Below are positions 7,498 through 48,835 of a stretch of 64,000 nt of DNA, in pieces; within the stretch, counting starts at the first letter, position 1; every line of letters begins with the position of its first letter. The notes below the pieces were generated by a model, which was not told the origin of the DNA, did no database searches, and saw nothing but the letters and a program-made list of their open reading frames with translations. The stretch spans positions 2,984 to 66,983 of the forward strand of contig DLMZ01000047.1 of NCBI GenBank assembly GCA_002479415.1, written 5' to 3'. The stretch is from Firmicutes bacterium UBA7523. GTDB lineage: Bacteria; Bacillota; Dethiobacteria; Dethiobacterales; Dethiobacteraceae. The position numbers and the translations under genes are program-made.

Positions 7498-7566
7498 CAC
7501 ATTGATTGACACACTTCCTTTTCATCTATATAATTGATTTTGAAATGCTTTCAGGGAGGTTTTGGC

Positions 7567-10185
7567 ATGAAGTCTAAAGATATCCGGGCTACATTTCTAG
7601 AGTACTTTAATAAACAGGATCATCTTGTATTACCCAGTTTTTCACTCATTCCTCAAAATGACCCTACCTTGCTTTTAGTTGGGGCCGGCATGGCTCCGTT
7701 AAAGCCATATTTCACCGGTGAAAAAGTGCCTCCGCACCCGAGGATAGCTACCTGTCAGAAGTGTGTGCGCACCCCGGATATAGAGCGTGTAGGCCGAACA
7801 TCACGGCATGCCACCTTTTTTGAAATGCTGGGGAATTTCTCCTTCGGAGATTATTTCAAGGAAGAAGCAATTGCTTGGGCTTGGGAATTGGTAACTAAAG
7901 GGTATAAGCTCCCAGAGGATAGGCTTTATGTCAGTGTCTACCAGGATGATGACGAAGCTTTTGAAATCTGGAACAAAAAAATTGGGTTGCCACCTGAAAA
8001 GATTTTTCGTTTGGGTAAGGAAGATAATTTCTGGGAGATAGGACAAGGTCCTTGCGGCCCGTGTTCAGAAATTTATTATGACTTAGGTTCGGAGCGCGGC
8101 TGCGGTCGTCCTAATTGTGAAGTAGGCTGTGACTGCGATCGATTTATGGAAGTCTGGAACCTGGTCTTTACTCAGTTTAACTGTATGGAAGACGGCAGTT
8201 ATCAGCCGTTAGCTAAAAAGAATATTGATACTGGCGCCGGCTTGGAGCGACTGGCAGTTGTGCTACAGGGAGTAAACAATCTATTTGAAATTGACACCGT
8301 GCGTCCTTTACTCGATTATTTTAGCGGTGTCACAGGCGTTAAATACGGCAGCGATGACTCTAAGGATGTCTCTTTGCGGATTATTACCGAGCATTTGCGT
8401 GGAATTACCTTTATGATTGGAGACGGCATTTTGCCCTGCAATGAAGGGCGGGGTTATGTGCTGCGGCGGTTGCTGCGTCGAGCCGTCCGCCACGGTAAGC
8501 TGCTTGGTGTGGCAGAGCCTTTTTTGTATAAAGCTGTAGATACAGTTGTCAGAGAATATGGAGAATTCTACCAGGAACTGGCTCAGGGTCAGGAGTATAT
8601 TGAAAAAGTGGTTCGCTTGGAAGAAGAACGCTTTCATGAAACTCTGGAACAGGGTATGAAGATATTAAGTGAGCAGATGAGCGAGAGTAAAAATGGAGTT
8701 TTCCCCGGGGACGCTGCGTTTAAGCTTTATGATACCTATGGTTTTCCTGTTGATTTAACTAAAGAAATACTAGCCGAGCATGAACTGGTCTTAGATGAGC
8801 AGGGTTTTAAGGACGCTTTAGAAGCACAGCGGGAGCGGGGCCGCAGCGCCCGTGGTGCTGCTGTTTACGGTAAGGAAGAAAGCATGTGGCATGATTTGGA
8901 AGGTGTAAACACAGAATTTGTTGGCTACGATAAGCTGGATGCAGAATCATCAATCATTGCTCTCTTTAAAGATGGCGAAAAGGTCGCTTCAGTAAGCGAA
9001 GGAGACAATGTAGATATTGTGCTTGATGCAACTCCCTTTTACGGAGAAAAGGGGGGACAAGCAGGTGACGCCGGTGTAATCAAGACGCCGGGAGGCTCTG
9101 TCGTTGTAAATGACACAATAATGACGCCACACGACCAAGTAATTCATCGCGGCAAGGTTGAATACGGCATAATTTCTGAGGGAGATGCTGCTGCAGCAGT
9201 TGTGGGTTCTGCTACACGAAGCGCCGTTTGCCGAAACCATACTGCAACCCATCTATTGCATCGTGCTTTGAGGGAAGTGCTGGGAGAGCATGTAAAGCAG
9301 GCCGGTTCTCTTGTTACCGCAGAAAGAATGCGTTTTGATTTTACCCATTTGAGTGCAGTTTCTCCGGAACAGTTGGCAGAAGTGGAAAAGCGGGTAAATG
9401 AAAAAATATGGGAAAATATACCTGTAAGTATCAGGCTGACCAGCATAGATGAAGCTAAAGAAATTGGTGCAACTGCGCTTTTTGAAGAAAAATACGGTGA
9501 TTCAGTACGCGTTGTCAGTGTGGGTGACTACAGTACAGAATTATGCGGTGGCACTCATGTTGCCAGCGTTGGCGAAATAGGTTTGTTTAAAATTATTTCG
9601 GAATCAGGAATCGGCGCAGGCTTGCGTCGTATTGAAGCGCTGACGGGCAGCGTTGCTTACAGCTTTTTTGAACAAAGCAGAAAACTTCTTGATTCCGCTG
9701 CGGTGCATTTGAAGACTTCGGCCGAACTCCTGCCGGATAAGATTGCTGACTTCATCGGTGAGCATAAAGAGCTGCAAAGAGAGTTCCAGCGGTTGCAGCT
9801 TAAGCTGGCCGGCATGGAAGTGGACGGTTTGTTGGAGAAGGTTTCTAAGCAAAGCGGTATTTCCGTAATCAGCGCTCAGGTATCCGCTGGTAATATGGAA
9901 ACTTTGCGGGAGATGTCAGATCGCCTTAAAAACAAAATACAATCGGGCATAATAGTTCTTGGCGCCGTATCGGACGGCAAGGTGCTTCTCGTCACTGCAG
10001 TTACGCAGGATCTAGTAAAAAAGGGGTACCATGCAGGCAAACTAATCGGCGAAGTGGCTAAACTTACCGGCGGCGGTGGTGGCGGACGCCCAGATATGGC
10101 ACAGGCAGGCGGCAAAAATCCTGAAGATTTAGCCGGAGCACTGCAAAAAGTTGATAATTTAGTGGAAAAACAAGGCAATAACTAA
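7567..10185 (+). CDS. alaS: Alanine--tRNA ligase
   Basis: ATG at 7567 follows GGGAGG. Class II motifs, FFEMLGNFSFGDYFK, editing-domain HTATHLLH and CGGTH, C-terminal GGGGGRPDMAQAGG. Confidence 0.95.
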   Translation: MKSKDIRATFLEYFNKQDHLVLPSFSLIPQNDPTLLLVGAGMAPLKPYFTGEKVPPHPRIATCQKCVRTPDIERVGRTSRHATFFEMLGNFSFGDYFKEEAIAWAWELVTKGYKLPEDRLYVSVYQDDDEAFEIWNKKIGLPPEKIFRLGKEDNFWEIGQGPCGPCSEIYYDLGSERGCGRPNCEVGCDCDRFMEVWNLVFTQFNCMEDGSYQPLAKKNIDTGAGLERLAVVLQGVNNLFEIDTVRPLLDYFSGVTGVKYGSDDSKDVSLRIITEHLRGITFMIGDGILPCNEGRGYVLRRLLRRAVRHGKLLGVAEPFLYKAVDTVVREYGEFYQELAQGQEYIEKVVRLEEERFHETLEQGMKILSEQMSESKNGVFPGDAAFKLYDTYGFPVDLTKEILAEHELVLDEQGFKDALEAQRERGRSARGAAVYGKEESMWHDLEGVNTEFVGYDKLDAESSIIALFKDGEKVASVSEGDNVDIVLDATPFYGEKGGQAGDAGVIKTPGGSVVVNDTIMTPHDQVIHRGKVEYGIISEGDAAAAVVGSATRSAVCRNHTATHLLHRALREVLGEHVKQAGSLVTAERMRFDFTHLSAVSPEQLAEVEKRVNEKIWENIPVSIRLTSIDEAKEIGATALFEEKYGDSVRVVSVGDYSTELCGGTHVASVGEIGLFKIISESGIGAGLRRIEALTGSVAYSFFEQSRKLLDSAAVHLKTSAELLPDKIADFIGEHKELQREFQRLQLKLAGMEVDGLLEKVSKQSGISVISAQVSAGNMETLREMSDRLKNKIQSGIIVLGAVSDGKVLLVTAVTQDLVKKGYHAGKLIGEVAKLTGGGGGGRPDMAQAGGKNPEDLAGALQKVDNLVEKQGNN

Positions 10186-13657: not shown

Positions 13658-15328
13658 ATGCACAGAAATAATCGTCAAAAAAGAATACTTATTTTGCTGC
13701 TTTGTTTTTTGTTCGCCGGTACTGCTCTTGTCGGCAGAATCTTTATGCTGCAAATTGTTCGAGGAGAGGAATTTGCTAAAGCCGCTGTAATTCAGCGTTC
13801 ACTGCGGCATGTGTATGCTACCGGCCGTGGACAAATCCTCGACCGCAACTCTGTTTCCCTTCTTGATAGCCGCTGGGAGCCAATCCTTGTATCTTTTAAC
13901 CCAATTTTAGCAAATGATTCCCAGCAAGTGTTGGCACAGTATGAACTTCACGAAGAGAGCAATGTAAACGTCATTCGCAATGTGGACGTAATTACCTTTC
14001 GCAGGCTCCAGGAAACCCCTATTTTTGGCCTAGTGCCTCTCTATGAAGAAATTCGCTATGGCCCAAAGGCACTTGCTCCCCATATAACCGGTTATATTCA
14101 ACGCCGGGAAACAAGAAAAAGAGGCCCTAACTATGTGGAGCTGACTTACAAGCCGGCGTCCGGGCTTGAGCGTTTCTTTGATTCTTCCCTCTCTGCCGCT
14201 CGTCCGTCTGCTTTAGCCGCCATATTGGACGGCCAGGGGCGCCTAATAGAAGGCTTGGGTTTTCGAGAATGGGGAGAGGACAACTCTCGCCGCCCTTATA
14301 ACGTAGTTACCACAATCGACTGCAATATCCAGGCTGCTGTTGAGAAAGTCGGCAGAAGTGCCATGGAAAGCGGGGCCATTGTAGTTATCGAGCCGAAATC
14401 CGGTGACATTTTAGCCATGGCATCCTTTCCCGACTATGAACCCGCTAAGTTCTACCAGGGATTAAGCGCCTATGAATACAATGAACTGGACAGCAACCCT
14501 TACAAGCCTTTTCTTAATAAGGCTGTGCAAAAATATTCTCCAGGCTCTGTATTTAAGGTTATTTTAGCTACCGCAGCTCTGGAAAGAAATTTTGACCAAA
14601 GAGAAGCTTACATATGCACAGGAAATATTAATGTGGGCGACCGCAGCATTTCCTGCTATCAAGGGCGTGTTCATGGTGAAGTTGATTTAAAGCAGGCGCT
14701 AGCGGTTTCCTGCAATGCCTATTTTATTCAGCTTGGCCAACGTTTGGGTTGGGAAACAGTTGCCGAAACGGCCCGGAGCTTTTCACTGGGACGCGCCAGC
14801 GAGCTTCCTCTGAGCATAGAGTCCTCCGGATATATCCCCGATGCCCAGGAGCTTTCCTCGTTAGGAGATTTGGCAAATGCTTCAATTGGTCAGGGAGTTG
14901 TTGAGACAACACCGTTGCAAATAGCAAGAATGATGGCTGTAATTGCCAACCAGGGGCGAGATATTTATCCTCGGCTAGTCTTAGAAATCACAGACAATAA
15001 CGGCGATACCGTGCGCCGATATCCGGTGCAGTACGGTTCCCTAGTTATAACTCCTGCCACAGCCCGTTTATTAACTTCTATGATGGAGGAAGTGGTGAAA
15101 TCAGGTACGGCTAAGGAAGCAGGGAGCTCACTTTATACAGCGGCAGGCAAATCGGGAACTGCTCAAACAGGGCGTGAAGGTGAGAGCTATTATTGGTTTG
15201 CCGGCTTTGCTCCAAGAGAAAATCCCCTGGTTATAGCTGTTTTTATAGATAGCCGCCGCGGTTTATCTGCTCCTGCCGTTTTCCGCCAAGTCACGGAGGC
15301 CATACTGCCCCTAAGGCAATCCCCATAA
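13658..15328 (+). CDS. Class B penicillin-binding protein (FtsI/SpoVD-type transpeptidase)
   Basis: N-terminal TM, dimerisation domain, active-site SPGSVFK, SCN and KSGTAQ boxes. Confidence 0.85.
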   Translation: MHRNNRQKRILILLLCFLFAGTALVGRIFMLQIVRGEEFAKAAVIQRSLRHVYATGRGQILDRNSVSLLDSRWEPILVSFNPILANDSQQVLAQYELHEESNVNVIRNVDVITFRRLQETPIFGLVPLYEEIRYGPKALAPHITGYIQRRETRKRGPNYVELTYKPASGLERFFDSSLSAARPSALAAILDGQGRLIEGLGFREWGEDNSRRPYNVVTTIDCNIQAAVEKVGRSAMESGAIVVIEPKSGDILAMASFPDYEPAKFYQGLSAYEYNELDSNPYKPFLNKAVQKYSPGSVFKVILATAALERNFDQREAYICTGNINVGDRSISCYQGRVHGEVDLKQALAVSCNAYFIQLGQRLGWETVAETARSFSLGRASELPLSIESSGYIPDAQELSSLGDLANASIGQGVVETTPLQIARMMAVIANQGRDIYPRLVLEITDNNGDTVRRYPVQYGSLVITPATARLLTSMMEEVVKSGTAKEAGSSLYTAAGKSGTAQTGREGESYYWFAGFAPRENPLVIAVFIDSRRGLSAPAVFRQVTEAILPLRQSP

Positions 15329-15390: not shown

Positions 15391-15852
15391 TTGATGCTTT
15401 TGTTTCCTGTTATTGCCGCTGTGGCGGCCATAGTAAAGGAAATTGTGCTGCTTGTATCTTACTTAAATAACAATTCTTTTCCCCAGCCCTTATCTCCCCG
15501 AGAAGAGAAGAGACACCTGGATTTAATGTTTCAGGGTGACCCCTATGCCCGCAGTATACTGATTGAGCATAATCTCCGTTTAGTTGCCCATGTAATAAAA
15601 AAGTTTGAAAATACAGGAGATGACCAGGAGGACCTCATCTCCATCGGCACAGTCGGCTTGATAAAAGCTATTGATTCTTTTAGAAACGATAAAGGTACTC
15701 GATTGGCAACCTATGCTGCCCGTTGCATTGAAAATGAAATTTTGATGCATATACGAGCCAATGCTAAACGAAAAGCAGAAGTTCTTTTGCACGACCCAAT
15801 AGGCAATGATAAGGATGGAAATGAGTTTACGCTATGTTTATATCTGTACTAG
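15391..15852 (+). CDS. sigK: Pro-sigma-K, N-terminal segment only (spoIVCB-like), interrupted by the prophage
   Basis: The pro-sequence plus regions 1.2-2.4 match sigma-K ([75 protein letters not shown]). The frame then ends after a few unrelated codons, and regions 3-4 are missing. Confidence 0.85.
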
Positions 15853-17384
15853 TCTAGCTTCGGCAGTATATCTAGCTCGAAGTCATCTCCAACTTGATGC
15901 TTTTCTTTGAGATAGACGGCACGCTCCACTACAGATTTGAGGAGCGTGTTTTTCTTTTGGATATCGGATGTGAGCGGGTATACCTTCAGTACATGCTCCA
16001 CGGTGGGGATAATGTCGAGTTGAGCCTTAGATCTCTTGATTTCCGCCAGGAGAGAGGCTTTGGCAGTCTCTATACCTACCTTGGCGTCTTCGATGCGCTC
16101 AGCGAGACTCTGTGACCTCTCAAGATATGTTTCCTCATCATATATGCCGCGCTCAAGGAAGTCATGCAGTTTTTCTTTCTGCTTTTCCAGCTCGGCCAAC
16201 TCTCGGGCTAATGATTCTTTAGCAGCTTCGCGCAACTTCACGGCATCTGTCGAAGGGGTTGGCTTCTTGTTACGCCTGCCCCACTGGGCCTTATATGTCG
16301 ATAGCCACTCCTCGAGAACAGTCAGCAGTCGCTGCTCCACAAGCTCAAATTTAGACCCTTTGTTGTTACACATGCGATTTTGGCAAATCATATGCGGTTT
16401 CTGCTTAGCGTACGGTCGGCGCACCATCATCATGCCGCACTTATCACACACGATTAGGCCAGCCAAAGGGTTAGACAATGCACCGTTAATAAAATACGGA
16501 GGGTGGGTTCTAGTTTCAAGTATTTTCTGCGCTTTTTGAAAATCTTCTTTACTGACTAATGCTTCGTGCTTGCCCTCGACTTCAATCCATTCATCCTGCG
16601 GCCTGGTCCGGGTGTCCTTGCGCTTGCCAGGCTCTTTAGATTTTTTGCATTCTTTTTTTTGCCACTGAATAACTCCGGAGTAGACTGCATTCTTGATTAC
16701 ATTCTGGACAGCAGCCTGTGACCAAGGTATACCGGTATAAGAGAGCAGACCCATCTTGTTCAGCTCATTAGCTATTTTTGCACATCCCAGATTGTCGTTG
16801 ATGTACCGTGAAAATATTAGCTTTACGACCGGCGCTTGCTCCTCGTTCGGAATTAGTGTTCTGTGACCGTCAATTTTGGCTATATCGTAGCCGTAAGGAG
16901 GACGGGGGGGCAAGTATCTCCCCTGCTCAACAGAGGCAATACGGCCACGCTGGAGCCTCCTCGTGATGAGCTTTAGCTCCCGCCGGGCCATGAAGGTTTC
17001 AAACTCTGAGTACTCTTCATCAAATTCGTCTGAAAGATCATAGGTTTTGCGCGGAGTGATTATTTTTGTTTTGGACTGCTGGAACGCTTCTAGGATGATG
17101 CCTTGTTCGCGCATACCGCCGCGGCCAAGCCTGTCCAGGTCCATACAAAGCACAGCGTCATAAGAACCGGCTTCAATCTCCTTGAGCAGCTCAAGCATCT
17201 CCGGCCGGTGAAGGATTGATTCTCCGGAGACTATCTCTTCGTAGATTTTAATTATGTTGAGATTTTTTTCTTTGGCCACTTGAAGCAGGGCGCGCTTGTG
17301 CTTCGCCAGGGTTTCGCCTTCGCCATGGGCTTCGGCTTCGATGTCTTGGCGGGATTTTCGCAGGTAGATTGCTACACGTTCCAT
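15849..17384 (-). CDS. Large serine recombinase (SpoIVCA-like integrase/excisionase)
   Basis: ATG at 17384 follows GAGGTGA. N-terminal resolvase domain ([11 protein letters not shown] with catalytic Ser, LDRLGR), recombinase domain, Cys-rich zinc ribbon (C.KCG....C.NRMC), coiled-coil C-terminus. Confidence 0.9.
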
Positions 17385-17419
17385 GCTTATCACCTCGGCT
17401 TAGATATATCATAGGTGGT

Positions 17420-17448
17420 GGAAAAAGAAAAGCCTCAGTTAAGAGGCT
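17420..17448 (-). terminator. Rho-independent terminator of the lysogeny operon
   Basis: On the minus strand: AGCCTC-TTAACT-GAGGCT followed by TTTTCTTTTTCC. Confidence 0.55.
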
Positions 17449-17492
17449 ACACACAGTTGGCGGCTTATAAACCTTTCTCAGCCAAGAATAAT

Positions 17493-17903
17493 CTATGATC
17501 TCTCAATCCCATTACATACAAACGCAAAATTTTCTTTGTATTCATCAAATTTCCTCTTATCATAAATGCCTTTGGCATTGCACGTTGGACACAAATATGT
17601 CCCTTCATCTTCGCTTATATGTACTTGTATTGTCTTGCTATTTGCATCCCAACATGCTGAGCAATACATAATACCTTCTTCGTCATCTTTTAATGTTAAA
17701 TATCCACCACTTTTATGCCTAGTGATTTTTGAAGAAATATCTCCCTTGAGCTTAAGTGTCCTGATCTCTTCTTTAAGTTGAATAATCTCGTTTTGCATCT
17801 CTAGTGCTTGTGCGCTTAAATCTATTAATTTTTTATATACATCAATATTGTCTATTTTTTGGAGAACTTGAGCAACGTCTTTTATGCCTTCATAAAGACT
17901 CAT
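17493..17903 (-). CDS. Hypothetical coiled-coil / zinc-ribbon protein
   Basis: The N-terminal half is coiled-coil-like. The C-terminal half has CSAC..19 aa..CPTC. No family recognised. Confidence 0.5.
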   Translation of the reverse strand: MSLYEGIKDVAQVLQKIDNIDVYKKLIDLSAQALEMQNEIIQLKEEIRTLKLKGDISSKITRHKSGGYLTLKDDEEGIMYCSACWDANSKTIQVHISEDEGTYLCPTCNAKGIYDKRKFDEYKENFAFVCNGIERS

Positions 17904-17932
17904 AATCACACTACCTTTCATATATTGTTTTT

Positions 17933-18018
17933 AGGAGGGAAGGGGATTCGAACCCCTGAGGCGTTTTCGCCTTACCGATTTTTAAGATCGGCGCCTTAAG
18001 CCACTCGGCCACCCCTCC
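17933..18018 (-). tRNA. tRNA-Leu (anticodon UAA), class II with long variable arm
   Basis: Hand-folded cloverleaf: acceptor GGAGGGG/TCCCTCC, D arm GCC-GAGTGGCTTAA-GGC, anticodon stem CCGAT/ATCGG with loop CTTAAAA, variable stem GGCG/CGCC, T arm AGGGG-TTCGAAT-CCCCT. No encoded CCA. Confidence 0.9.
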
Positions 18019-18236
18019 CCAAACTCGAAACCAAATGTAATGCCAACCAAAACATGCCCCAGTCAACATCGCCCCAATCACAATCAGCCCCACCGCTATA
18101 GCAGTAATCTCCCATAGCGACTTGAGCAGCTCAATTGCCCAGGCGGAAACGCTGACCCGGTAAAAGAATAGGGTTATGCCAGATATTAAAATAGAGAGGG
18201 AGAAAAGTAGGTGGTGGTCATTTAGTCAGTCCTTGT

Positions 18237-41674: not shown

Positions 41675-42604
41675 GTGGCCAGGAAGCGCAGCCCGGAGCG
41701 AGACAAAGCGTACGAGATGTGGAAAGAGAGCGGAGGGGAAATGCCGCTTGTTGATATTGCCGCGAAGTTGGGCGTTAGTCCGGAACAGATACGGAAGTGG
41801 AAGCATCAGGATAAATGGTGTGCTGGGGGGCCGGAGAAAAAGGTAACGAGAAATGAAAAGGTAACGTTACCAAGGAAGGAAGAAAAGAAAAAGCAGAAAG
41901 GTAGCGTTACTAATAGGGTAGACGAGCAAATACTAAAAGAGATTGAAGAGGCAGAACTGACTGAAAAGCAGAAGTTGTTCTGCCTTTATTATATAAAAAA
42001 CTTTAATGCTACTCAGGCAGCAATCAGGGCTGGGTATAGCAAATGTAGCGCTCACGTAAGCGGGCCACGTCTATTAGGTAATGATAGAGTTAGAAATGAA
42101 ATCCGCCGCCTCAAGGGGGTAATGCACGAAGAGTTACTAATTGATGCAATGGATGTTCTTGCTAAGTATATCAAGATTGCCTTTTCCGACCCTTCCGAGT
42201 ACGTGACCTTTGGGCAAAAAGAGATTCAGGTTATGAATATGTTCGGACCTCTTTACGAAGAGGTAGGTGAAGGTGAACACAAAGTTAAGAAGCCGGTTAT
42301 GAAGACTGTCAACTACATTGACTTCAAAGAAAGCAGCGACGTTGACGGCTCCATCATAACCGAGGTTTCCCAGGGTAAGGACGGCGCAAAAATCAAATTC
42401 GCCGATAAGATGAAAGCCCTGGAAAAGCTAGAGCTCTACTTCGACCTTTTGCCTGACAAATGGAAGCGCCGCTTGGAGGAAGAGAAACTAGAGGTGCAGA
42501 AAAAGCGGCTGGACATAGATGACAAAGATAAGACTATGAAAGTTATGATAGTGGACAATATCCCTGAAGGCCCTGAGATTAACTCAGAGGGTGATGAGCA
42601 ATGA
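41675..42604 (+). CDS. Terminase small subunit (Terminase_2-like with N-terminal HTH)
   Basis: GTG follows GGTGGTGAGAG. LTEKQKLFCLYYIKNFNATQAAIRAGYS is the classic small-terminase motif. Confidence 0.8.
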   Translation: MARKRSPERDKAYEMWKESGGEMPLVDIAAKLGVSPEQIRKWKHQDKWCAGGPEKKVTRNEKVTLPRKEEKKKQKGSVTNRVDEQILKEIEEAELTEKQKLFCLYYIKNFNATQAAIRAGYSKCSAHVSGPRLLGNDRVRNEIRRLKGVMHEELLIDAMDVLAKYIKIAFSDPSEYVTFGQKEIQVMNMFGPLYEEVGEGEHKVKKPVMKTVNYIDFKESSDVDGSIITEVSQGKDGAKIKFADKMKALEKLELYFDLLPDKWKRRLEEEKLEVQKKRLDIDDKDKTMKVMIVDNIPEGPEINSEGDEQ

Positions 42605-44106
42605 TGCCGCAGACAAGCGAAAGCCTTCAAGTAAACTTAAACGATATAATTGCGCCCAGTTTTTACTCCCTTCACCATGATGTTAAACAAGAGCGCTTCA
42701 CTGAATTTTGGTTGCGCGGCGGCCGTGGTTCAACAAAATCATCATTTGCCAGCGCAGAGATCATCTTGGGCATGATGCGGGACGCAGACGCCGGGGAGCA
42801 TACTAACGCCGTAGCCTTGCGCAAGGTTAAGGACACGCTCCACGACTCCGTCTTTGAGCAGCTTTCTTGGGCTATAGAGAAGCTTGGCGTGTCTCATCAA
42901 TGGCATATCCCGCAATCAAAGCTAGAAATAACATATAAGCCAACAGGGCAGAAGATTTTGTTCCGCGGAGCAGATAACCCAAAAAAGATTAAGTCCACAA
43001 AGGTTAAGAAAGGTTATATTAAGTATATTTGGTTTGAGGAACTCGATGAGTTCTACGGCCCGGAAGAAATTAGGGTTATCAATCAATCCCTCATGCGTGG
43101 CGGCGAAAAGTTTCTCGTCTTGTACAGCTATAACCCGCCGAAGAGCTCCCGGTCTTGGGTTAACCATGAAGCCAAGATCCCAAAGCCAGGCCGGAAAGTG
43201 CATACATCAGATTACAGAGCTGTGCCAAAAGAATGGCTAGGCTCTATTTTTATTGCCGACGCAGAGCACTTAATGCGCACGAACGAAATGGCTTACCAGC
43301 ATGAGTACCTGGGCGAGGAGGTTGGCACAGGGCTTGAGATATTTACTAACGTAACATTAAGGAAAATTACCGATGAAGAAATTAGGGCTTTTGACCGCAT
43401 AAAGCAAGGGCTTGATTTCGGGTACGCTGTGGATCCGGTTTGTTTCGAGAAAATGCATTACGATAAGACCAGGAAACGGCTCTATATCTTCTATGAGTTT
43501 AGTGGGATAAAGACATCTAACCGTAAGCTTTATGTCGCTATTAAAGATCAACTGTCAACAATAACGACAGCTGACAGCGCCGAGCCTAAGAGCATTTCAG
43601 AGTTAAAGGGGTACGGCATGCAAATTAAGGGGGCCAAGAAAGGCCCTGATTCCGTTGACTATGGTATTAAATTCTTGAGTGAAGATATAGAGGAAATCAT
43701 CATCGACCCGGTAAGGTGTCCCAGGGCAGCGAAAGAGTTTATAAACTACGCTCTGGAAACTAACCAGCAGGGCGAGGTTATAAGTAGCTATCCGGACAAA
43801 GATAACCACTGTATAACTGGTGACACTATAGTGAACACCTTGAGTGGTGACTTTCCAATCTCACAACTGGTTGGAAGAGAAGGGCTTGTTCATTGTTACG
43901 ATGAGAAGAATAAAAAAGCTACTGCGTCACGATATCTTGATGTGCGTCTAACTAGGGAAAAAGCAAAGGTATACGAAATTGAATTAGAAGACGGGCGGAG
44001 AATAAAAGCGACAGAAGATCATCTTGTATTAACCCAGGACGGATGGAAGCAGGTTAAAAACATCGGCTGTACTGATAGCATCCTTGACATATCCAACCAC
44101 GCTTGA
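42601..44106 (+). CDS. Terminase large subunit N-fragment (ATPase and most of the nuclease domain) fused to intein N-splicing half
   Basis: Walker A GGRGSTKS, Walker B IWFEELDE, nuclease Asp motifs. At 43810 Cys1 starts Hint block A (CITGDTIV), followed by block B (ATEDHLVLT). Stop at 44104-44106. Confidence 0.85.
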   Translation: MMPQTSESLQVNLNDIIAPSFYSLHHDVKQERFTEFWLRGGRGSTKSSFASAEIILGMMRDADAGEHTNAVALRKVKDTLHDSVFEQLSWAIEKLGVSHQWHIPQSKLEITYKPTGQKILFRGADNPKKIKSTKVKKGYIKYIWFEELDEFYGPEEIRVINQSLMRGGEKFLVLYSYNPPKSSRSWVNHEAKIPKPGRKVHTSDYRAVPKEWLGSIFIADAEHLMRTNEMAYQHEYLGEEVGTGLEIFTNVTLRKITDEEIRAFDRIKQGLDFGYAVDPVCFEKMHYDKTRKRLYIFYEFSGIKTSNRKLYVAIKDQLSTITTADSAEPKSISELKGYGMQIKGAKKGPDSVDYGIKFLSEDIEEIIIDPVRCPRAAKEFINYALETNQQGEVISSYPDKDNHCITGDTIVNTLSGDFPISQLVGREGLVHCYDEKNKKATASRYLDVRLTREKAKVYEIELEDGRRIKATEDHLVLTQDGWKQVKNIGCTDSILDISNHA

Positions 44107-44140
44107 TACGATAAGGTATGGGTATGAAGGGGGCTCAAAT

Positions 44141-44803
44141 ATGGCCGAAAAAGTGCGTTACGAAGATGGGCAGAAATTTGCTTATTTCAACGGCATTAAG
44201 TTTACGCGGGATAATAAAACAGGATATTATTTAAATTCAACCATTCGAAAAAGGCTCCACCGCTATATCTGGGAGTTTTATAATGGAAAGGCCCCAAAAG
44301 GCCATCACGTGCATCATAAGGACCGAGATAAGAGTAATAACGATATCAGCAACTTAGGGCTTTTAAGACATGGTAAACATGTGACACTCCACGGCATTGA
44401 GAATTCCATGGACGATGAGTGGCTAGAACGGTCAAGGGAAAACCTTAAAGTAAACGCAAGGCCAAAAGCATCTGAGTGGCATAGGTCCGAAGAAGGCAAG
44501 GAATGGCATAAGCAACACTACGAATCATGTAAGGACAAATTCCACCGCAAAGTAAAAAGAAACTGCGATAACTGTGGAGCCGAGTTTGAAGCGTTGGATA
44601 ACGGGCTCAATAGATTCTGCAGCAATAAATGTAAGTCTGCATGGAGAAGAGCGACGGGACTTGATGATGAGGTGAAACAATGTGAATTTTGCGGAACAGT
44701 TTTTATTGCCAACAAATACAGTAAGCAGAAGTGCTGCTCAAAAGCCTGTTCTAATAGGCTCTCTCCCAGGCTCCCCATCCTTCGCAAAGGTAAAGTCAGT
44801 TAA
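44141..44803 (+). CDS. Free-standing HNH homing-type endonuclease between the intein halves
   Basis: ATG follows GAAGGGGG. HHKDRDKSNNDISNLGLLRHGKHVTLH, plus C-terminal CxxC zinc ribbons. In a different frame from both intein halves. Confidence 0.8.
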   Translation: MAEKVRYEDGQKFAYFNGIKFTRDNKTGYYLNSTIRKRLHRYIWEFYNGKAPKGHHVHHKDRDKSNNDISNLGLLRHGKHVTLHGIENSMDDEWLERSRENLKVNARPKASEWHRSEEGKEWHKQHYESCKDKFHRKVKRNCDNCGAEFEALDNGLNRFCSNKCKSAWRRATGLDDEVKQCEFCGTVFIANKYSKQKCCSKACSNRLSPRLPILRKGKVS

Positions 44804-44975
44804 GTTTGTTGGGGAACACGATGTTTACAATATGGAAGTCGCAGACCACCATAACTTTGCGGTTAATGGTGGTCTTATTATTCACAATTGTATAGATGCT
44901 GCAAGGTACGCCCTAGAAGATGAGATGAAAAATGCCAAGGCTAAAGCGCTGGGTGCTAAGCCGCGAGGATTTTAA
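44682..44975 (+). CDS. Intein C-splicing half plus terminase large subunit C-extein
   Basis: GTG follows GAGGTGA (8-nt spacing). Blocks F/G VYNMEV..HHNFAVNGGLIIHN, then Cys+1 at 44889 and IDAARYALEDE (the conserved TerL ..DA.RY.. nuclease motif). Confidence 0.7.
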   Translation: MNFAEQFLLPTNTVSRSAAQKPVLIGSLPGSPSFAKVKSVKFVGEHDVYNMEVADHHNFAVNGGLIIHNCIDAARYALEDEMKNAKAKALGAKPRGF

Positions 44976-45001: not shown

Positions 45002-46489
45002 TTGCCAAAACTCATAATCGGTAGCCAAGAGTACGAATCCTGGCCGCCAGACGATCCACAAAACAAAGCACGCCTGGAAAATTATAAGCGCTCCCGGCTG
45101 TTGTTTAAGGGTAAGCACCAGGACGTATATGAACGCATCCAGAAATGGCTGGAGCGCCAGGAAGATAAAGAGCTTATTTATATCGTCTGCAACTTTGCCG
45201 GCCTGCTTAGCAAAGTTTCTGCCGATATGCTTTTTGGTGAGCAGCCGCGCTTTGTGGCAGGAGAAGAGAAGTCAAAGGAGCAGGAAGCGCTTGATACCAT
45301 AGTCAAGAATAATAGTCTGCATGTCCTCAATTATGAGATGGCTCTTTCAGCAAGCTGGCGCGGAGAAGCGATATATAAAGTGCGCTTTGGTAAGTTCGCA
45401 GACTGGGCAGAGACTGAGCACGCGGTCATTGAGACAGTATCGCCCGAAATATTTTACCCTATTCTAGACGAGGACAACGTCCGGGGACTCAAAGGCGGAA
45501 TATTCGGCTGGGTAAAGCAAGGTCCTGGTGACAAGAAGTACCTGCGCATCGAGCGGCAGCTGCCTGGGCTTATAGAAAGCGAGCTATACGAGCTTGACGG
45601 CCGCAGTATCGGTCAGCGCGTAAAGCTCAATACTTTCCCGGAGTATGCTGACCTAGAAGATGTGCAGGAGACTAGATATCCTGGGTTGCTGTTTGAGGTC
45701 GTGCCAAACTGGCGGCTTGATGATGAGTTTTATGGGATTTCTGATTACTATGATTTAGAGGGAATCTTCGATGAGCTGAACAACAGGGTAAGTCGTATAT
45801 CTCGGGTCCTCGATAAACATGAGAGTCCTAAATTGATCTTGCCTCCCGGTATCATGAAATGGGACGAGAATTACCGGCGGTGGCACATCGAAAAAGAAGA
45901 CCTCGAAGCTATTGAGGTTAACCCGGCCGAGGAGCAAGTTGGGGACTTACCGCGCTATTTGACCTGGGACGCCCAGCTTGAAGCGGCATTCAAGCAGATA
46001 GACAAGCTGCTGGAGTTTGCCTTTATGGTGTCAGAGACTTCGCCGGACGCCTTCGGGCTTGGGAAAAGTGGCCAGGCTGAGAGCGGGAGGGCGCTGAAAT
46101 TTCGGTTGCTTCGTCTGCTGGCTAAGATAAACCGCAAAAAGCTCTACTTCGACGAAGCTTTACGAAATACACTTTACGCAGCGCAGTATCTCAACAACGT
46201 CTGGGGCCGCGGCCCGGAGCCGCAGGATGTCAGGATTGAGTGGCAGGACGGGTTGCCTGCGGATGAGTTGGAGCAGGCTCAGGTTGAGCAGACCCGCACT
46301 GGTAACAAAGCTACAAGCAGCGTCCGGAGCGCAGTGCGGCGGCTGGACAATTTGGATGGCGAGCAGCTGGAGGAAGAGCTTGAAGAGATAGCGAAGGACG
46401 AAAAGAGCCTGGGGGGGCAAGCCGCGGATCCTGCGCTGAGCATCACTTTGCCTGGCGTGGAGGGTGACGAAGAGCAAGAGGGTGAATAG
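45002..46489 (+). CDS. Portal protein (SPP1 gp6-like)
   Basis: Position after the terminase, about 495 aa, acidic C-terminus. Family call is from general pattern only. Confidence 0.7.
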   Translation: MPKLIIGSQEYESWPPDDPQNKARLENYKRSRLLFKGKHQDVYERIQKWLERQEDKELIYIVCNFAGLLSKVSADMLFGEQPRFVAGEEKSKEQEALDTIVKNNSLHVLNYEMALSASWRGEAIYKVRFGKFADWAETEHAVIETVSPEIFYPILDEDNVRGLKGGIFGWVKQGPGDKKYLRIERQLPGLIESELYELDGRSIGQRVKLNTFPEYADLEDVQETRYPGLLFEVVPNWRLDDEFYGISDYYDLEGIFDELNNRVSRISRVLDKHESPKLILPPGIMKWDENYRRWHIEKEDLEAIEVNPAEEQVGDLPRYLTWDAQLEAAFKQIDKLLEFAFMVSETSPDAFGLGKSGQAESGRALKFRLLRLLAKINRKKLYFDEALRNTLYAAQYLNNVWGRGPEPQDVRIEWQDGLPADELEQAQVEQTRTGNKATSSVRSAVRRLDNLDGEQLEEELEEIAKDEKSLGGQAADPALSITLPGVEGDEEQEGE

Positions 46490-48663
46490 TGATGTCCAAA
46501 TTTGGAGAAGGCAGCGGCGCTGCTCGCTTCAGCGATGTCCAGGCACAGAGACTGATAAAATTTTACGAACAGGCCGAACGTGAAATACTGGATCAGCTGA
46601 ACAGGGCATTACTTCGAGGCAACAAGACTGAGTATTTGGCCGGCATGAGGAGAAATATCGGGGCTATCCTAGGCGACCTGAGAAAGGGGAATAGAACATG
46701 GTGTGAAGAAGCGTTGCCAAGTGTGTACTCTCAAGGAATCCGCTCAACTGACATTATGTTGGGGCAAGAAGGGTTCAGGGTTAGTGATGTAGCAGGTTTT
46801 GGCACCCTCCATCAACAAGCGGCACAGGTCTTGGCGGAGAACACATATCAGCGGTTGGATAGTGTGGCGCAACTAATCGGGAGACGAACAGAGAGTGTAT
46901 ATCGCGACCTGGCCCTAGAGAATATTCGTGGTAGCGTAGTTGGGTATGACAGTTGGAGAGATGTAGCTAGGCGATATCACGAACAACTAGCAGAACAGGG
47001 AGTGACAGGATTTAAAGACGCAAAGGGTCGCAATTGGAATATGAAGAGCTATGCGGAGATGGTAGCTAGAACTAGCACTATGGAAGCGCATCTTCAAGGG
47101 ACTGCTAACCGCCTGGTGGAGCAAGGTCATGATTTAGTGAAGGTGAGCAGGCATCAAGGAGCTTGCGAATTATGCGTTCCCTGGGAGGGTTCGATATTAA
47201 GTATAACTGGCAAGACAGACGGGTACCCGACGTTAGAAGAAGCAAGGGGAGCAGGGCTGCTTCACCCGAACTGTTTCCCGGCTGGAGTATTAGTCAATGG
47301 TCCGGCACCATTGGCCGCGTTTGCCAGATGGTATGAGGGCGAGATAGTCATCATTACCACTGCCAGTGGAGTAGAATTGCCCGTCACCCCAAATCACCCT
47401 ATATTGACGCCTAAAGGATGGTTGGCTGCGGGACTGCTCAACAAAGGCGATGATATCATCCGCTACACAGGGCAAAAGGGGATGATAAGCGATATTGACC
47501 CAGACGATCAGGACATTCCAACCCCGATCGAACAAGTAGTTGACTCGTTCAGGGAGTCTTGCGGCGTGCCGTCCCGATGCATGCCAGTTACCCCCGAAGA
47601 CTTCCACGGCGACGGGGTCGGCTCCGAGGTCTATGTTGTATGGGCCGACAGCCTGTTGATGGGTGATAGCAATGTCTCTTTCGGCGAGCCATTCAGCAAG
47701 AATATGTTCTGTTTTGCTGATGTGAGATCCCACTTTTTGCTTACCTTTGGCACGCTTGTGCAGATCTTCATCAGAGCGCTTACTACCGCGCAGCGCTTGA
47801 TTGGCGGCACTAGTAAGAGCGCGTCGCTCTTCGGCTGTCATCCTTTCCATTCGGGTTCTCAAGGCTTCGGAGCGACTATTAGCAGTGGTAATGCCAAAAT
47901 TAGCGAGGCGTCTCTGAAGTGTAGCATGGTTAACACCCAAGCTTTCCGCAATAGCCTTCTTGGTTTCGCCAGCGAGATACCGTTGCAGAATCTTTTCGTT
48001 GTCCAAGGGAATGCGACGATTAATTCTTGCTTCGGCAAAGCTACGAATAGGGATACTATTTTTTTCAAGAATAGTTTTAACGGTTTGCTTGCCGACATGG
48101 AAGGTGGTCGCAAGTTGATGGAGCGACTCGCCGGAGGTATAGCGACGGATGAGATCACTAGCATCAAGGTTAACGCTTTTTCTGGACATGTTTATAACCT
48201 CCAAACTAAAGATGGTTGGTATGTTGCCAATTCAATTATAACACATAATTGCCGGCATTCTTATGGACTGCACATTGACCTTGACAAAGAGATCGAAGAT
48301 CTAGAAAAAGAGCTAAAAGATGTTGAAGATACATTGCCAGGCTATAAAAAAGCTGTTGTTCCCCCAGATAAACTAATTAATTATGTCTTAAATAAAGAAC
48401 ATTTACGTGGAGGCAAAGATAAGGCTATAGCTTTTGAAAGAGCTTTGGGTTATAATATTAATAACTATCAGGAGTTGATAGGCAATATTAAGGAAAACTT
48501 AAGGGCTTGGCCTGCTGCTTTAAAGGGTAAAAACCAATATGGTATGAAATATGAAGTCATGATGCTTCTAAGCGGGCCAAACGGGAAAACAGCAAAAGTG
48601 GTTACTGCTTGGTTGGTGGACAAAACAGGTGCGAGGTTGGTGAGTGCGTATGTCAAGGATTGA
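46489..48663 (+). CDS. MuF-like minor head (head morphogenesis) protein containing an intein and a C-terminal DUF6883-like domain
   Basis: MuF/SPP1 gp7 pattern ending in the conserved HPN-C-R motif. That motif is interrupted after HPN by 326 codons bounded by CFPAGVLV.. and ..SIITHN/C. Confidence 0.85.
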   Translation: MMSKFGEGSGAARFSDVQAQRLIKFYEQAEREILDQLNRALLRGNKTEYLAGMRRNIGAILGDLRKGNRTWCEEALPSVYSQGIRSTDIMLGQEGFRVSDVAGFGTLHQQAAQVLAENTYQRLDSVAQLIGRRTESVYRDLALENIRGSVVGYDSWRDVARRYHEQLAEQGVTGFKDAKGRNWNMKSYAEMVARTSTMEAHLQGTANRLVEQGHDLVKVSRHQGACELCVPWEGSILSITGKTDGYPTLEEARGAGLLHPNCFPAGVLVNGPAPLAAFARWYEGEIVIITTASGVELPVTPNHPILTPKGWLAAGLLNKGDDIIRYTGQKGMISDIDPDDQDIPTPIEQVVDSFRESCGVPSRCMPVTPEDFHGDGVGSEVYVVWADSLLMGDSNVSFGEPFSKNMFCFADVRSHFLLTFGTLVQIFIRALTTAQRLIGGTSKSASLFGCHPFHSGSQGFGATISSGNAKISEASLKCSMVNTQAFRNSLLGFASEIPLQNLFVVQGNATINSCFGKATNRDTIFFKNSFNGLLADMEGGRKLMERLAGGIATDEITSIKVNAFSGHVYNLQTKDGWYVANSIITHNCRHSYGLHIDLDKEIEDLEKELKDVEDTLPGYKKAVVPPDKLINYVLNKEHLRGGKDKAIAFERALGYNINNYQELIGNIKENLRAWPAALKGKNQYGMKYEVMMLLSGPNGKTAKVVTAWLVDKTGARLVSAYVKD
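47272..48249 (+). other. Intein (Hint domain) within the MuF gene
   Basis: Cys1 TGT at 47272. Block A CFPAGVLV, block B VTPNHPILT, then GWLAAGLLNKGDDI, blocks F/G GHVYNLQTKDGWYVANSIITHN, +1 Cys at 48250. 978 nt, in frame. Confidence 0.85.
47290..48189 (-). CDS. Vsr/DUF559-like (PD-(D/E)xK) homing-type endonuclease with two N-terminal HTH modules, encoded antisense inside the intein
   Basis: ATG at 48189 with GGAGG 7 nt upstream. Two resolvase-type HTH segments (GESLHQLATTFHVGKQTV; GETKKAIAESLGVNHATL). Core is GPYNIDLGADPVAVEVFGGNWH....H........L...GW.VL.VW. Confidence 0.75.
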   Translation of the reverse strand: MSRKSVNLDASDLIRRYTSGESLHQLATTFHVGKQTVKTILEKNSIPIRSFAEARINRRIPLDNEKILQRYLAGETKKAIAESLGVNHATLQRRLANFGITTANSRSEALRTRMERMTAEERRALTSAANQALRGSKRSDEDLHKRAKGKQKVGSHISKTEHILAEWLAERDIAITHQQAVGPYNIDLGADPVAVEVFGGNWHASGRHAARLPERVNYLFDRGWNVLIVWVNIAYHPLLPCVADDIIAFVEQSRSQPSFRRQYRVIWGDGQFYSTGSGNDDYLALIPSGKRGQWCRTID

Positions 48664-48835
48664 AGTTAAAGAATTTGATATAGTTAAACTTAAAGACGGC
48701 CGCGAAGGAACGGTGGTGCATATCCATGACCAGCCGGAGTTGCCGCTTGCTTATGAGATTGAGTTTGGGGGCAAACTGCAGCTTGAGACAGTAAAAGCTA
48801 AGGACGTAGAAGTGGTTGTTTGGAGAGAAAAATAG
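48644..48835 (+). CDS. DUF4926-like small protein (candidate partner/immunity of the MuF C-terminal domain)
   Basis: Overlaps the MuF stop. FD.VKLKDGREGTVV.I.......YE.EF fits the DUF4926 pattern as I remember it. Confidence 0.55.
   Translation: MRMSRIEVKEFDIVKLKDGREGTVVHIHDQPELPLAYEIEFGGKLQLETVKAKDVEVVVWREK

Follow-up and report, generated by a model that had tools for sequence, protein, structure and literature searches.

How can one piece of DNA serve two proteins at once? This question is raised by a prophage gene in the 64,000-nucleotide (nt) stretch analysed here, referred to below as the window, which comes from Firmicutes bacterium UBA7523 (Dethiobacteraceae; assembly GCA_002479415.1, contig DLMZ01000047.1, positions 2,984 to 66,983, forward strand). 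The gene encodes a MuF-like minor head protein and is interrupted by a 978-nt intein; the complementary strand of the same intein holds an open reading frame (ORF) of 299 codons that resembles a homing endonuclease. A first-pass annotation had proposed that both products are under selection, that the head protein can be made only by translation through the antisense of the nuclease gene followed by splicing, and that the nuclease is a separate, oppositely transcribed gene. The results of this study make it very probable that the element is a mobile intein of a widespread family, situated in the HPxC/(C)R motif of MuF-like proteins (in sequence motifs, a slash marks a splice junction), with a separate, codon-aligned antisense homing endonuclease gene nested inside it.

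The intein and its antisense nuclease gene

The product of the two exteins spliced in silico (261 and 137 amino acids, aa) matched intein-less MuF proteins in 179 phage records. The best intein-less match, the minor head protein of Caudoviricetes sp. vir515 (43% identity, E 2e-74, BLASTP), is collinear with it over the junction, where LLHPN/CRHSYGL aligns with MLGPNCRHIYTL; as the first-pass annotation had expected of such an alignment, the insertion is exactly 978 nt at HPN/CRH. At the DNA level, the intein-less junction for this locus would read ...CTGCTTCACCCGAAC/TGCCGGCATTCT.... In the precursor, Pfam recognised Phage_min_cap2 (residues 18-262, E 3.5e-29) and DUF6883 (residues 616-723, E 1.7e-23). 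The insert carries the class-1 intein signature, namely C1 (47272), T39-P-N-H42, H325-N326 and C+1 (48250), and among 69 aligned of 350 intein homologues C1, T39, N41, H42, the H325-type residue and N326 are invariant or nearly so.

The AlphaFold2 (AF2) model of the intein is confident for residues ~1-100 and 280-326. Its predicted local distance difference test score (pLDDT) is 91-98 for residues 1-60, 84 for residues 61-70 and 93-98 for residues 291-326, and lies below 50 over most of residues 132-273. The top Foldseek match of this model was the Mtu RecA mini-intein (E 3.5e-4, probability 1.0), with many other inteins next. As modelled, the sense product is a Hint fold with an unstructured centre. 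The stretch between the splicing blocks had been put at roughly 230 codons without an endonuclease motif. Its + strand translation gave no Pfam domain match, in agreement with the second part of this statement; the Ser/Gly/Leu/Phe-rich passenger is shorter than stated, at about 165-190 codons. The MuF locus is one uninterrupted 724-codon ORF, not the two ORFs with a stop and a new start that define a fractured gene. Together with the comparison of relatives, this frame supports the proposal that the head protein is made only by translation through the nuclease antisense, and we predict that it arises by protein splicing of the 724-aa precursor.

The low coordinates of both ORFs are congruent to 1 mod 3, so that nuclease and intein codons are exact reverse complements of each other. 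Codon-for-codon antisense is the one register in which each stop codon of the sense frame equals a single codon opposite, TTA, CTA or TCA. All three can be replaced synonymously, and the intein frame can therefore be kept open at no protein cost to the nuclease. Of the 25 Leu and 22 Ser codons in the minus-strand gene, not one is TTA, CTA or TCA. This codon count and the exact alignment of the two frames had been pointed out in the first-pass annotation; they were re-checked together with its coordinates, Hint motifs, GGAGG ribosome-binding site and nested start and stop, and each statement proved correct.

From its ATG the minus-strand ORF encodes 299 aa; from an upstream TTG it encodes 304 aa. 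Profile searches on both strands, a check that had been proposed at the outset, placed Hint models on the + strand and helix-turn-helix (HTH) and Vsr-like profiles on the minus-strand product, where Pfam matched HTH_7 and CENP-B_N at residues 5-43, HTH_23 at residues 66-98 and, weakly, REase_MTES_1575. The profile of the nuclease family matched the tandem-HTH protein 2lvs (E 4.9e-10). There were 108 protein homologues, and an AF2 model based on 65 homologues (pLDDT 91.5) consists of two HTH modules of three helices each, a helical linker and a nuclease core of alpha/beta type. The catalytic domain of I-Bth0305I (3r3p) was the top Foldseek match of the model (E 7.2e-4, TM-score 0.62 on the target), and a nuclease-domain profile ranked 3r3p (E 2.7e-5) above the DUF559 structure 3hrl (1.1e-4) and Vsr, 1cw0 (6e-3). 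Residues Y184, N185, D187, E196, G199, H203 and R215 are invariant in the family alignments; E161, D187, E196 and H203 align with the corresponding positions of I-Bth0305I, and D187 and H203 match the sites at which the crystallised 3r3p is mutated, D196A and H213A. A shorter size class of relatives seems to be without the first HTH repeat. PHROGs held no family for the nuclease apart from its HTH parts. By homology and modelled fold, the minus-strand gene encodes a predicted Vsr-like homing endonuclease whose closest solved relative is I-Bth0305I.

Selection and expression signals on the two strands

With the codon usage of the 25 other ORFs of the prophage, which use TTA, CTA and TCA for 25% of Leu and 16% of Ser, 9.8 of these codons are expected in the nuclease gene and 0 were seen (P(none) 1.5e-5). 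With the exteins alone as reference, 10.3 are expected (P 3.9e-6). None of 256 sampled 299-codon windows of other prophage genes was at zero (minimum 2, mean 9.3), and the longest run elsewhere in the prophage without any of the three codons is 185 codons. The avoidance of these codons compared with the remainder of the prophage, which the first-pass annotation had marked for a permutation test, was thus confirmed.

The relatives of the locus were picked on nuclease similarity alone. The set used for the codon frame comprises 140 loci with G+C contents of 0.38-0.72, of which 86 are from phages and metagenomes (the IMG/VR part being the best 80 of 534 contigs) and 54 from cellular genomes. The codon-aligned sense frame is stop-free across the nuclease match in 86/86 phage and metagenome loci and in 53/54 cellular loci; the other two antisense frames contain 2-33 stops in each of the 139 loci in which the aligned frame is open. 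In a set of 55 distinct loci, extein usage predicts about 205 stop-generating codons, and 0 were seen; in the locus with the lowest G+C content (L016), 22.7 are expected (P 2e-14). The sole exception among the 140 is a copy in a Thermoleophilia metagenome-assembled genome (MAG) (L102; JAOPYQ010000041.1, 2180-3181), which has 2 sense-frame stops while one other antisense frame is stop-free, and which looks like a decayed or frameshifted copy.

Substitutions were read from a codon alignment of 57 non-redundant loci and from an alignment without gaps between the window and L007, its closest relative, from which the counts per segment in Table 1 are taken. The strand under selection changes along the element. 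Both Hint parts appear to be selected as intein and the codons between them as nuclease. In the passenger linker, mean pairwise BLOSUM scores over the 57 loci are -0.25 to 0.7 in the sense frame versus 0.8-2.5 in the nuclease frame; in the C-terminal Hint part they are 2.1-3.1 in the sense frame versus 0.4-1.3 in the antisense frame. At 47334-47290, the score of the nuclease frame is about 0. On this pattern, the sense frame of the passenger linker is unconstrained apart from stop avoidance. The segment at 47470-47649 is nuclease-dominated too, but seems sense-conserved through mirroring, as its sense motif EDFHGDG..V.VV mirrors YNIDL..VAVEV.GG, the strands of the active site. A function of this motif as a segment of the intein was considered and appears less probable, the substitution pattern being that of a nuclease active-site mirror; yet the motif is kept in two mini-derivatives (P0152 and P0179, described below).

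At block B, the nuclease sequence RRQYRVIWGD is the antisense of VTPNHPILT. The Ile/Val codon of the block (NHP[IV]L) is NTA, i.e., ATA or GTA, in 54/55 loci, and appears to be kept because its reverse complement encodes the conserved Tyr of QYRV (nuclease residue ~263). In the AF2 model, strands with high pLDDT occupy residues 262-267 and 272-277 of the nuclease tail. The NTA codon in 54/55 loci speaks against the whole tail being a passive mirror of block B. Codon choice thus suggests that ~30-100 nt at block B are truly dual-coding, with neither frame a mere passenger.

The splicing blocks at the other end of the intein carry signals for the nuclease gene. The block F His codon is CAT in 47/50 loci and CAC, which gives GTG, in 3/50, versus 29% CAT in the exteins (p 4e-22); in blocks B and G, most His codons are CAC. 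The Leu codon of N-L-Q in block F is CTC in 43/50 loci versus 32% in the exteins (p 3e-15), so that GGAG is kept 8 nt upstream of the nuclease start. This codon bias is strong evidence that the start codon and the Shine-Dalgarno sequence (SD) of the nuclease gene lie inside block F, and the extreme synonymous-codon bias that keeps the antisense ATG and GGAG suggests that the nuclease is translated. Codon choice at I-[IV] of block G favours ATT-[AG]TA (p 1e-15 to 1e-20), with ATT in 53/76 versus a background of 21%, ATA in 35/50 versus 13% and GTA in 22/34 versus 9%. Among 92 distinct loci, the antisense of block G reads TATAAT 24 times and TACAAT 17 times, and the adjacent Thr codon is ACA in 18/39 versus 14%, giving a TGn extension. 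The extended -10 box of the window, TGTGTTATAAT, occurs there once, versus 0.02 expected matches; it was spotted by eye and then tested by codon bias. A nuclease extended at its N-terminus was rejected as the source of the block G bias, since 16/49 loci, the window included, have an in-frame stop before the ATG. We reasonably infer that the TATAAT of block G is a candidate promoter of the nuclease gene.

The open frame in 139/140 loci, the stop-codon avoidance, the strand-specific substitutions and the codon bias at the antisense ATG and SD argue, as comparative sequence evidence, that both products are under selection. The conserved register, the biased start and SD codons and an AF2 model like I-Bth0305I likewise favour the view that the nuclease is encoded by a separate, oppositely oriented gene. 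In this clean natural example, opposite strands encode two proteins with their codons in one shared register, and the selection on each has been mapped by segment.

Distribution, mobility and alternative explanations

A tblastn search with the nuclease found 117 GenBank phage records, 62 from Salmonella, 15 from Gordonia and 15 from Pseudomonas, the remaining hosts being Escherichia, Vibrio, Klebsiella, Haemophilus/Aggregatibacter, Rhodococcus, Pantoea, Cronobacter and others. The feature annotated beneath the match is mostly a head-morphogenesis or MuF gene, and inspection of two records, those of Gordonia phage Vivi2 and of Salmonella phage VSe101, confirmed the opposite-strand placement. 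A pattern scan revealed further relatives in 534 IMG/VR contigs and in 54 GTDB species genomes from Actinomycetota, Chloroflexota, Bacteroidota, Pseudomonadota, Gemmatimonadota, Cyanobacteria, Patescibacteria, Sumerlaeota and other phyla. The nearest relatives are an IMG/VR contig (78%) and a Sumerlaeota MAG (72%). The sense ORFs of the relatives show the same intein motifs, nearly always at HPxC/...HN/C(R) of a MuF-type domain, and in some of them the intein lies within portal-MuF fusions. In five loci (L030, L037, L093, L106 and L123), the intein is part of ORFs of 959-1504 aa with portal-like or other domains before the MuF module or extra domains after it. Four others (L100, L101, L116 and L120) have a variant junction, HPNGR/C...HN/C(T/A)MIP.

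The nuclease ORF starts 20-21 codons ahead of the intein end and stops 1-23 codons past Cys1 in 48/50 loci; of the remaining two, one is truncated and one misaligned. Judged from these borders, the nuclease gene and its signals never leave the intein. Gene callers list the nuclease ORF almost only on contigs of ~1 kb with a cut sense ORF, or in place of the MuF gene (L003), and the family phrog_15127, named 'head protein', covers the passenger translation. For annotation this means that hundreds of phage 'head morphogenesis' genes conceal an unannotated nuclease gene, and that protein databases hold a meaningless passenger translation.

The spliced MuF protein of phage VSe101 was used as a probe and retrieved 390 related phage records. 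Among Jersey-like Salmonella phages with exteins 86-96% identical, intein-plus records (two pieces spanning 1581 bp) and precisely intein-less records (one piece of 764 bp) are interleaved, and two records named Jersey differ in the presence of the intein (polymorphic records include KF148055.1 and MT588083.1). The intein of these phages has 816 nt, or 272 aa, and a shorter nuclease with one HTH. This pattern of presence and absence fits homing, or repeated precise loss. As the phages can be cultivated with and without the element, both homing and expression are directly testable. Two Escherichia phage records carry the annotation 'minor head protein with inserted intein'. At the MuF site, P0152 and P0179 have shorter inteins in which the Hint ends and EDFHGDG..V.VV are kept and the HTH-antisense region is lost. 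They are probably deletion derivatives without the nuclease, which is what a homing cycle predicts; the remnant motif may have a role in the intein.

On the preferred reading, a late structural transcript would be translated through the whole 978-nt insert, and the Hint halves (residues ~1-105 and 280-326) would fold around a linker of ~170 aa that is the antisense read-out of the nuclease gene. Splicing in cis would then yield the 398-aa MuF protein and a free intein. The 299-aa nuclease would be expressed from the minus strand, with its -10 box in block G and its SD and ATG in block F. It would cut intein-less MuF alleles of co-resident phages or prophages, and recombinational repair would copy the intein and the nuclease gene jointly. 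We infer here that the precursor splices, that antisense transcription is driven from the -10 box, that intein-less alleles are cleaved and that the element homes. The selfish nuclease gene could ride in an intein unfused, a state that current models of intein evolution would place between mini-inteins, fractured genes and canonical endonuclease-containing inteins.

On balance, we also lean towards a stronger reading, in which the element is one interlocked, self-contained mobile unit: the splicing blocks double as the expression cassette of the nuclease, the I-[IV]-T codons of block G supplying a TG-n-TATAAT promoter, and block B and N4 are dual-coding with a structural hairpin of the nuclease. 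The unit would form a widespread family, not a rarity of actinophages, and would have been overlooked systematically, as gene callers list only the longer sense ORF. If so, neither partner could be lost or recoded without harm to the other, and phages of Proteobacteria, Actinomycetota, Chloroflexota, Bacteroidota, Cyanobacteria, Patescibacteria and others would carry the unit.

Several points weigh against a mobile intein with a functional antisense nuclease gene. The Pfam Intein_splicing and TIGR intein N- and C-terminal models score under their curated cut-offs (30.9 versus 35.8 bits). In G+C-rich loci, a stop-free sense frame alone is unremarkable (P 0.1-1), and the joint statistics ignore shared ancestry, although between loci of 31-78% protein identity the synonymous sites are saturated. 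The last Asp of the EDxHD motif aligns with Leu or Pro in the nuclease, with no acidic residue, and the invariant Arg215 follows. A consensus scan for promoters and terminators gave no minus-strand site near the nuclease start, having missed the extended -10 box because the scan demands a -35 match. Codon bias is the single line of evidence for this box, which is absent or degenerate in ~40% of loci. Some copies may no longer home, given the vertical-looking Vsr-like cases reported in an actinophage survey (bioRxiv 10.1101/2025.01.02.630785).

Three other explanations were weighed. One denies the minus-strand ORF any function and takes it for the mirror artefact of a conserved sense protein, or for a decaying relic, so that the intein alone matters. 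G+C-rich DNA often has long codon-aligned antisense frames, conservation is indeed mirrored in places (QYRVIWG versus TPNHPILT; EDFHGDG versus YNIDL..VAVEV), P0152 and P0179 have lost most of the nuclease gene, and L102 has decayed. However, substitutions in the centre pile up at the third codon position of the nuclease, and most of them leave the nuclease residue unchanged but alter that of the sense frame; a structureless sense centre stands opposite a product with HTH matches, a high-scoring model and likeness to a proven homing endonuclease; the nuclease ATG and SD are kept by codon bias; and the nuclease ORF is intact in a genome of 46% G+C. This explanation is very improbable, and even less can be said for one that treats the open + frame as a by-product of codon usage and the MuF gene as broken, a pseudogene or fractured gene with no translation through the insert. 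TTA, CTA and TCA are rare in many G+C-rich hosts, but this prophage uses them freely, as the expected counts above reflect, and no other sampled 299-codon window is without them. Exactly this frame is open in 139/140 loci and the other two are never open across those 139. The Hint blocks on either side lie in one frame under purifying selection, and no arrangement of start codon and ribosome-binding site is seen for a separate C-terminal MuF half.

The third explanation accepts that the nuclease is expressed, but not for homing: it would have been domesticated, for instance to regulate by DNA binding or to attack rival phages, or the element would be fixed and vertically inherited. The vertical-looking patterns of most Vsr-like cases in the same preprint point this way; the tandem HTH modules could have a repressor role, late genes could be regulated through the convergent orientation, and no intein-less close relative of the window prophage was found. 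On the other hand, the catalytic residues are invariant in the family and present in the window nuclease, the gene and all its signals lie strictly within the intein, as expected of a co-mobile unit, precise presence and absence are interleaved in the Jersey-like phages, and the family occurs in distant hosts yet always at the same MuF site. We consider this explanation unlikely, though less so than the other two, and keep to the homing intein with an antisense nuclease gene.

Relation to described systems and other features of the window

The first-pass annotation was aware of no described contiguous intein with a reverse-strand endonuclease gene. This hint of novelty did not hold. Gosselin, Arsenault and Gogarten (bioRxiv 10.1101/2025.01.02.630785, October 2025 version) surveyed actinophage inteins and reported anti-sense VSR-like nucleases in contiguous inteins, minor capsid proteins included; these nucleases were linked to 3R3P and 1CW0, the in-frame region was without recognisable structure, and inheritance looked vertical for most Vsr-like cases. 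According to the works cited there (Gorbalenya 1998, Gogarten 2002), anti-sense LAGLIDADG endonucleases in inteins have been known since 1998, with Ssp DnaX and the Chloroflexus SpoVR-like intein as examples; as far as they are described in that preprint, they resemble the present case in combining a contiguous intein with an endonuclease on the complementary strand, and differ in nuclease family and exteins.

The actinophage cases share with the window a contiguous intein, a MuF-like minor capsid gene and a structureless in-frame region. Homologues of the window nuclease (34-36% identity, E 1e-30 to 6e-35, tblastn) lie on the opposite strand under the MuF genes of Gordonia phages Vivi2, Fosterous, Affeca and Angelicage. 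Unlike these, the window copy lies in a prophage of 46% G+C outside actinophages. In the window and its relatives, in contrast to what the preprint describes, the nuclease ORF spans block F to 1-23 codons from Cys1. The text of the preprint makes no mention of promoter, ribosome-binding site, start codon or codon usage. Neither there nor in the other literature searched did we find the invariant codon register, the stop-avoidance statistics, the ATG, SD and -10 box in blocks F and G, the dual coding of block B or the wide spread beyond actinophages. The architecture is already described; the present copy and its relatives extend the hosts to a much wider range and add the expression signals embedded in the intein. 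A specialist would know the architecture; the ubiquity and the signals in the splicing blocks are probably the noteworthy part.

Dassa et al. 2009 (PMC2677866) described fractured genes in which the two halves of a split intein flank a free-standing Vsr-like or GIY-YIG gene; according to that paper, no Vsr-like nuclease was known inside an intein. Such genes resemble the present one in having a separate nuclease gene at the usual endonuclease insertion region and a Vsr-like product with N-terminal DNA-binding repeats; unlike them, the window nuclease gene is inverted, the intein is one polypeptide, and splicing is expected in cis. I-Bth0305I was characterised, and the EDxHD family named, by Taylor et al. 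2011 (PMC3239194; PDB 3R3P). It shares with the window nuclease the two N-terminal HTH/NUMOD-like modules, the C-terminal Vsr-like domain and the aligned Glu, Asp, Glu and His positions. It differs in being encoded on the sense strand of a group I intron in a phage recA gene, in having only ~20% identity to the window nuclease, and in the last Asp of its motif, which has no acidic counterpart in the window nuclease, where the invariant Arg215 follows instead. Protein engineers may take an interest in the tolerance of the Hint domain for an unstructured insert of ~170 residues and in a compact, programmable-looking nuclease of HTH and Vsr-like parts.

Table 1. Features of the MuF intein locus and of other parts of the window (syn/nonsyn, synonymous/nonsynonymous substitutions)
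Feature	Position	Strand	Basis or remark
MuF-like (minor head / head morphogenesis) precursor ORF	46489..48663	+	724 aa including intein; ORF list, Pfam Phage_min_cap2
N-extein, 261 aa, end ...GAGLLHPN	46489..47271	+	Aligned to intein-less minor head protein up to junction
Class-1 intein, 326 aa, 978 nt (Cys1 ... His-Asn)	47272..48249	+	Motifs, homologues, fold
Hint N-terminal part (blocks A, B, N4), codons 1-66	47272..47469	+	Sense (intein)-selected, variation mainly at sense position 3; syn/nonsyn: sense 14/7, nuclease frame 6/15
Cys1 in CFPAGVLV	47272	+	Sequence
Block B VTPNHPILT	47383-47409	+	Sequence
Nuclease-selected stretch, intein codons 67-126	47470-47649	+	Substitution pattern; syn/nonsyn: sense 2/19, nuclease frame 16/5
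Passenger linker, Ser/Gly/Leu/Phe-rich, 165 codons (intein codons 127-291)	47650..48144	+	Sense translation of antisense nuclease gene; nuclease-selected; syn/nonsyn: sense 11/90, nuclease frame 56/45; sense positions 1/2/3, 77/19/34
Hint C-terminal part (blocks F, G), codons 292-326	48145..48249	+	Sense (intein)-selected by BLOSUM and codon-position profiles; syn/nonsyn: sense 3/7 (too few to read), nuclease frame 2/8
Block F GHVYNLQT	48184-48207	+	Sequence
Block G NSIITHN	48229-48249	+	Sequence
+1 Cys after intein	48250-48252	+	Sequence
C-extein, 137 aa, start CRHSYG..., DUF6883 domain	48250..48663	+	Pfam, junction alignment
Predicted homing endonuclease gene, 299 codons and TAA stop, fully inside intein	47290..48189	-	ORF, homologues, AF2
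Two HTH modules of nuclease, residues ~5-43 and 65-98	47896..48177	-	Pfam HTH_7, CENP-B_N, HTH_23; 2lvs profile match
Vsr-like / EDxHD-type nuclease domain, residues ~155-255	47425..47727	-	Family alignments, profile, Foldseek
Nuclease residue D187	47629-47631	-	Family alignment
Nuclease residue H203	47581-47583	-	Family alignment
Nuclease C-terminal tail over Hint blocks A-B	47290..47424	-	Partly dual-coding; last ~30 codons passenger
Nuclease stop TAA	47290-47292	-	Sense Leu7 codon TTA in block A
Nuclease start ATG	48187..48189	-	Antisense of block F His codon CAT
SD GGAGG of nuclease gene	48198..48202	-	Antisense of AAC-CTC-CAA (N-L-Q), block F; 8 nt upstream of ATG
Candidate extended -10 promoter TGTGTTATAAT	48235..48245	-	Antisense of ATT-ATA-ACA-CA (I-I-T-H), block G; implies a 5' untranslated region of ~39 nt
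Terminase large subunit (TerL) N-part (Terminase_3, Terminase_3C) and intein N-half (DKDNH/CITGDTIV.., TEDHLVLT), then stop	42601-44106	+	
HNH endonuclease, other frame	44084-44803	+	Pfam HNH_3 E 1e-14; phrog_15471 E 1e-44
Intein C-half (..GGLIIHN/CIDAARY..) and TerL C-extein, GTG start	44682-44975	+	
Large serine recombinase (Resolvase, Recombinase, Zn_ribbon_recom)	15849-18019	-	
tRNA-Leu(UAA)	17932-18019		Adjoins serine recombinase
Alanyl-tRNA synthetase, host gene	7534-10185		Upstream of recombinase
Penicillin-binding transpeptidase, host gene	13658-15328		Upstream of recombinase

The terminase large subunit locus of the same prophage (42601-44975, + strand), 2.3 kb from the MuF intein, looks like a fractured gene with a split intein. 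The two loci offer a side-by-side contrast in one prophage, the terminase gene having a split intein plus a same-strand HNH endonuclease gene, the MuF gene having a contiguous intein and an antisense Vsr-like one.

A small ORF (48644-48835) follows the MuF gene with a 20-nt overlap and has a weak, sub-threshold match to DUF4926. We presume that the DUF6883 C-terminus and this ORF could be a toxin-like module and its partner, as in MuF polymorphic toxins. The region of the serine recombinase and tRNA-Leu is probably the integration end of the prophage.

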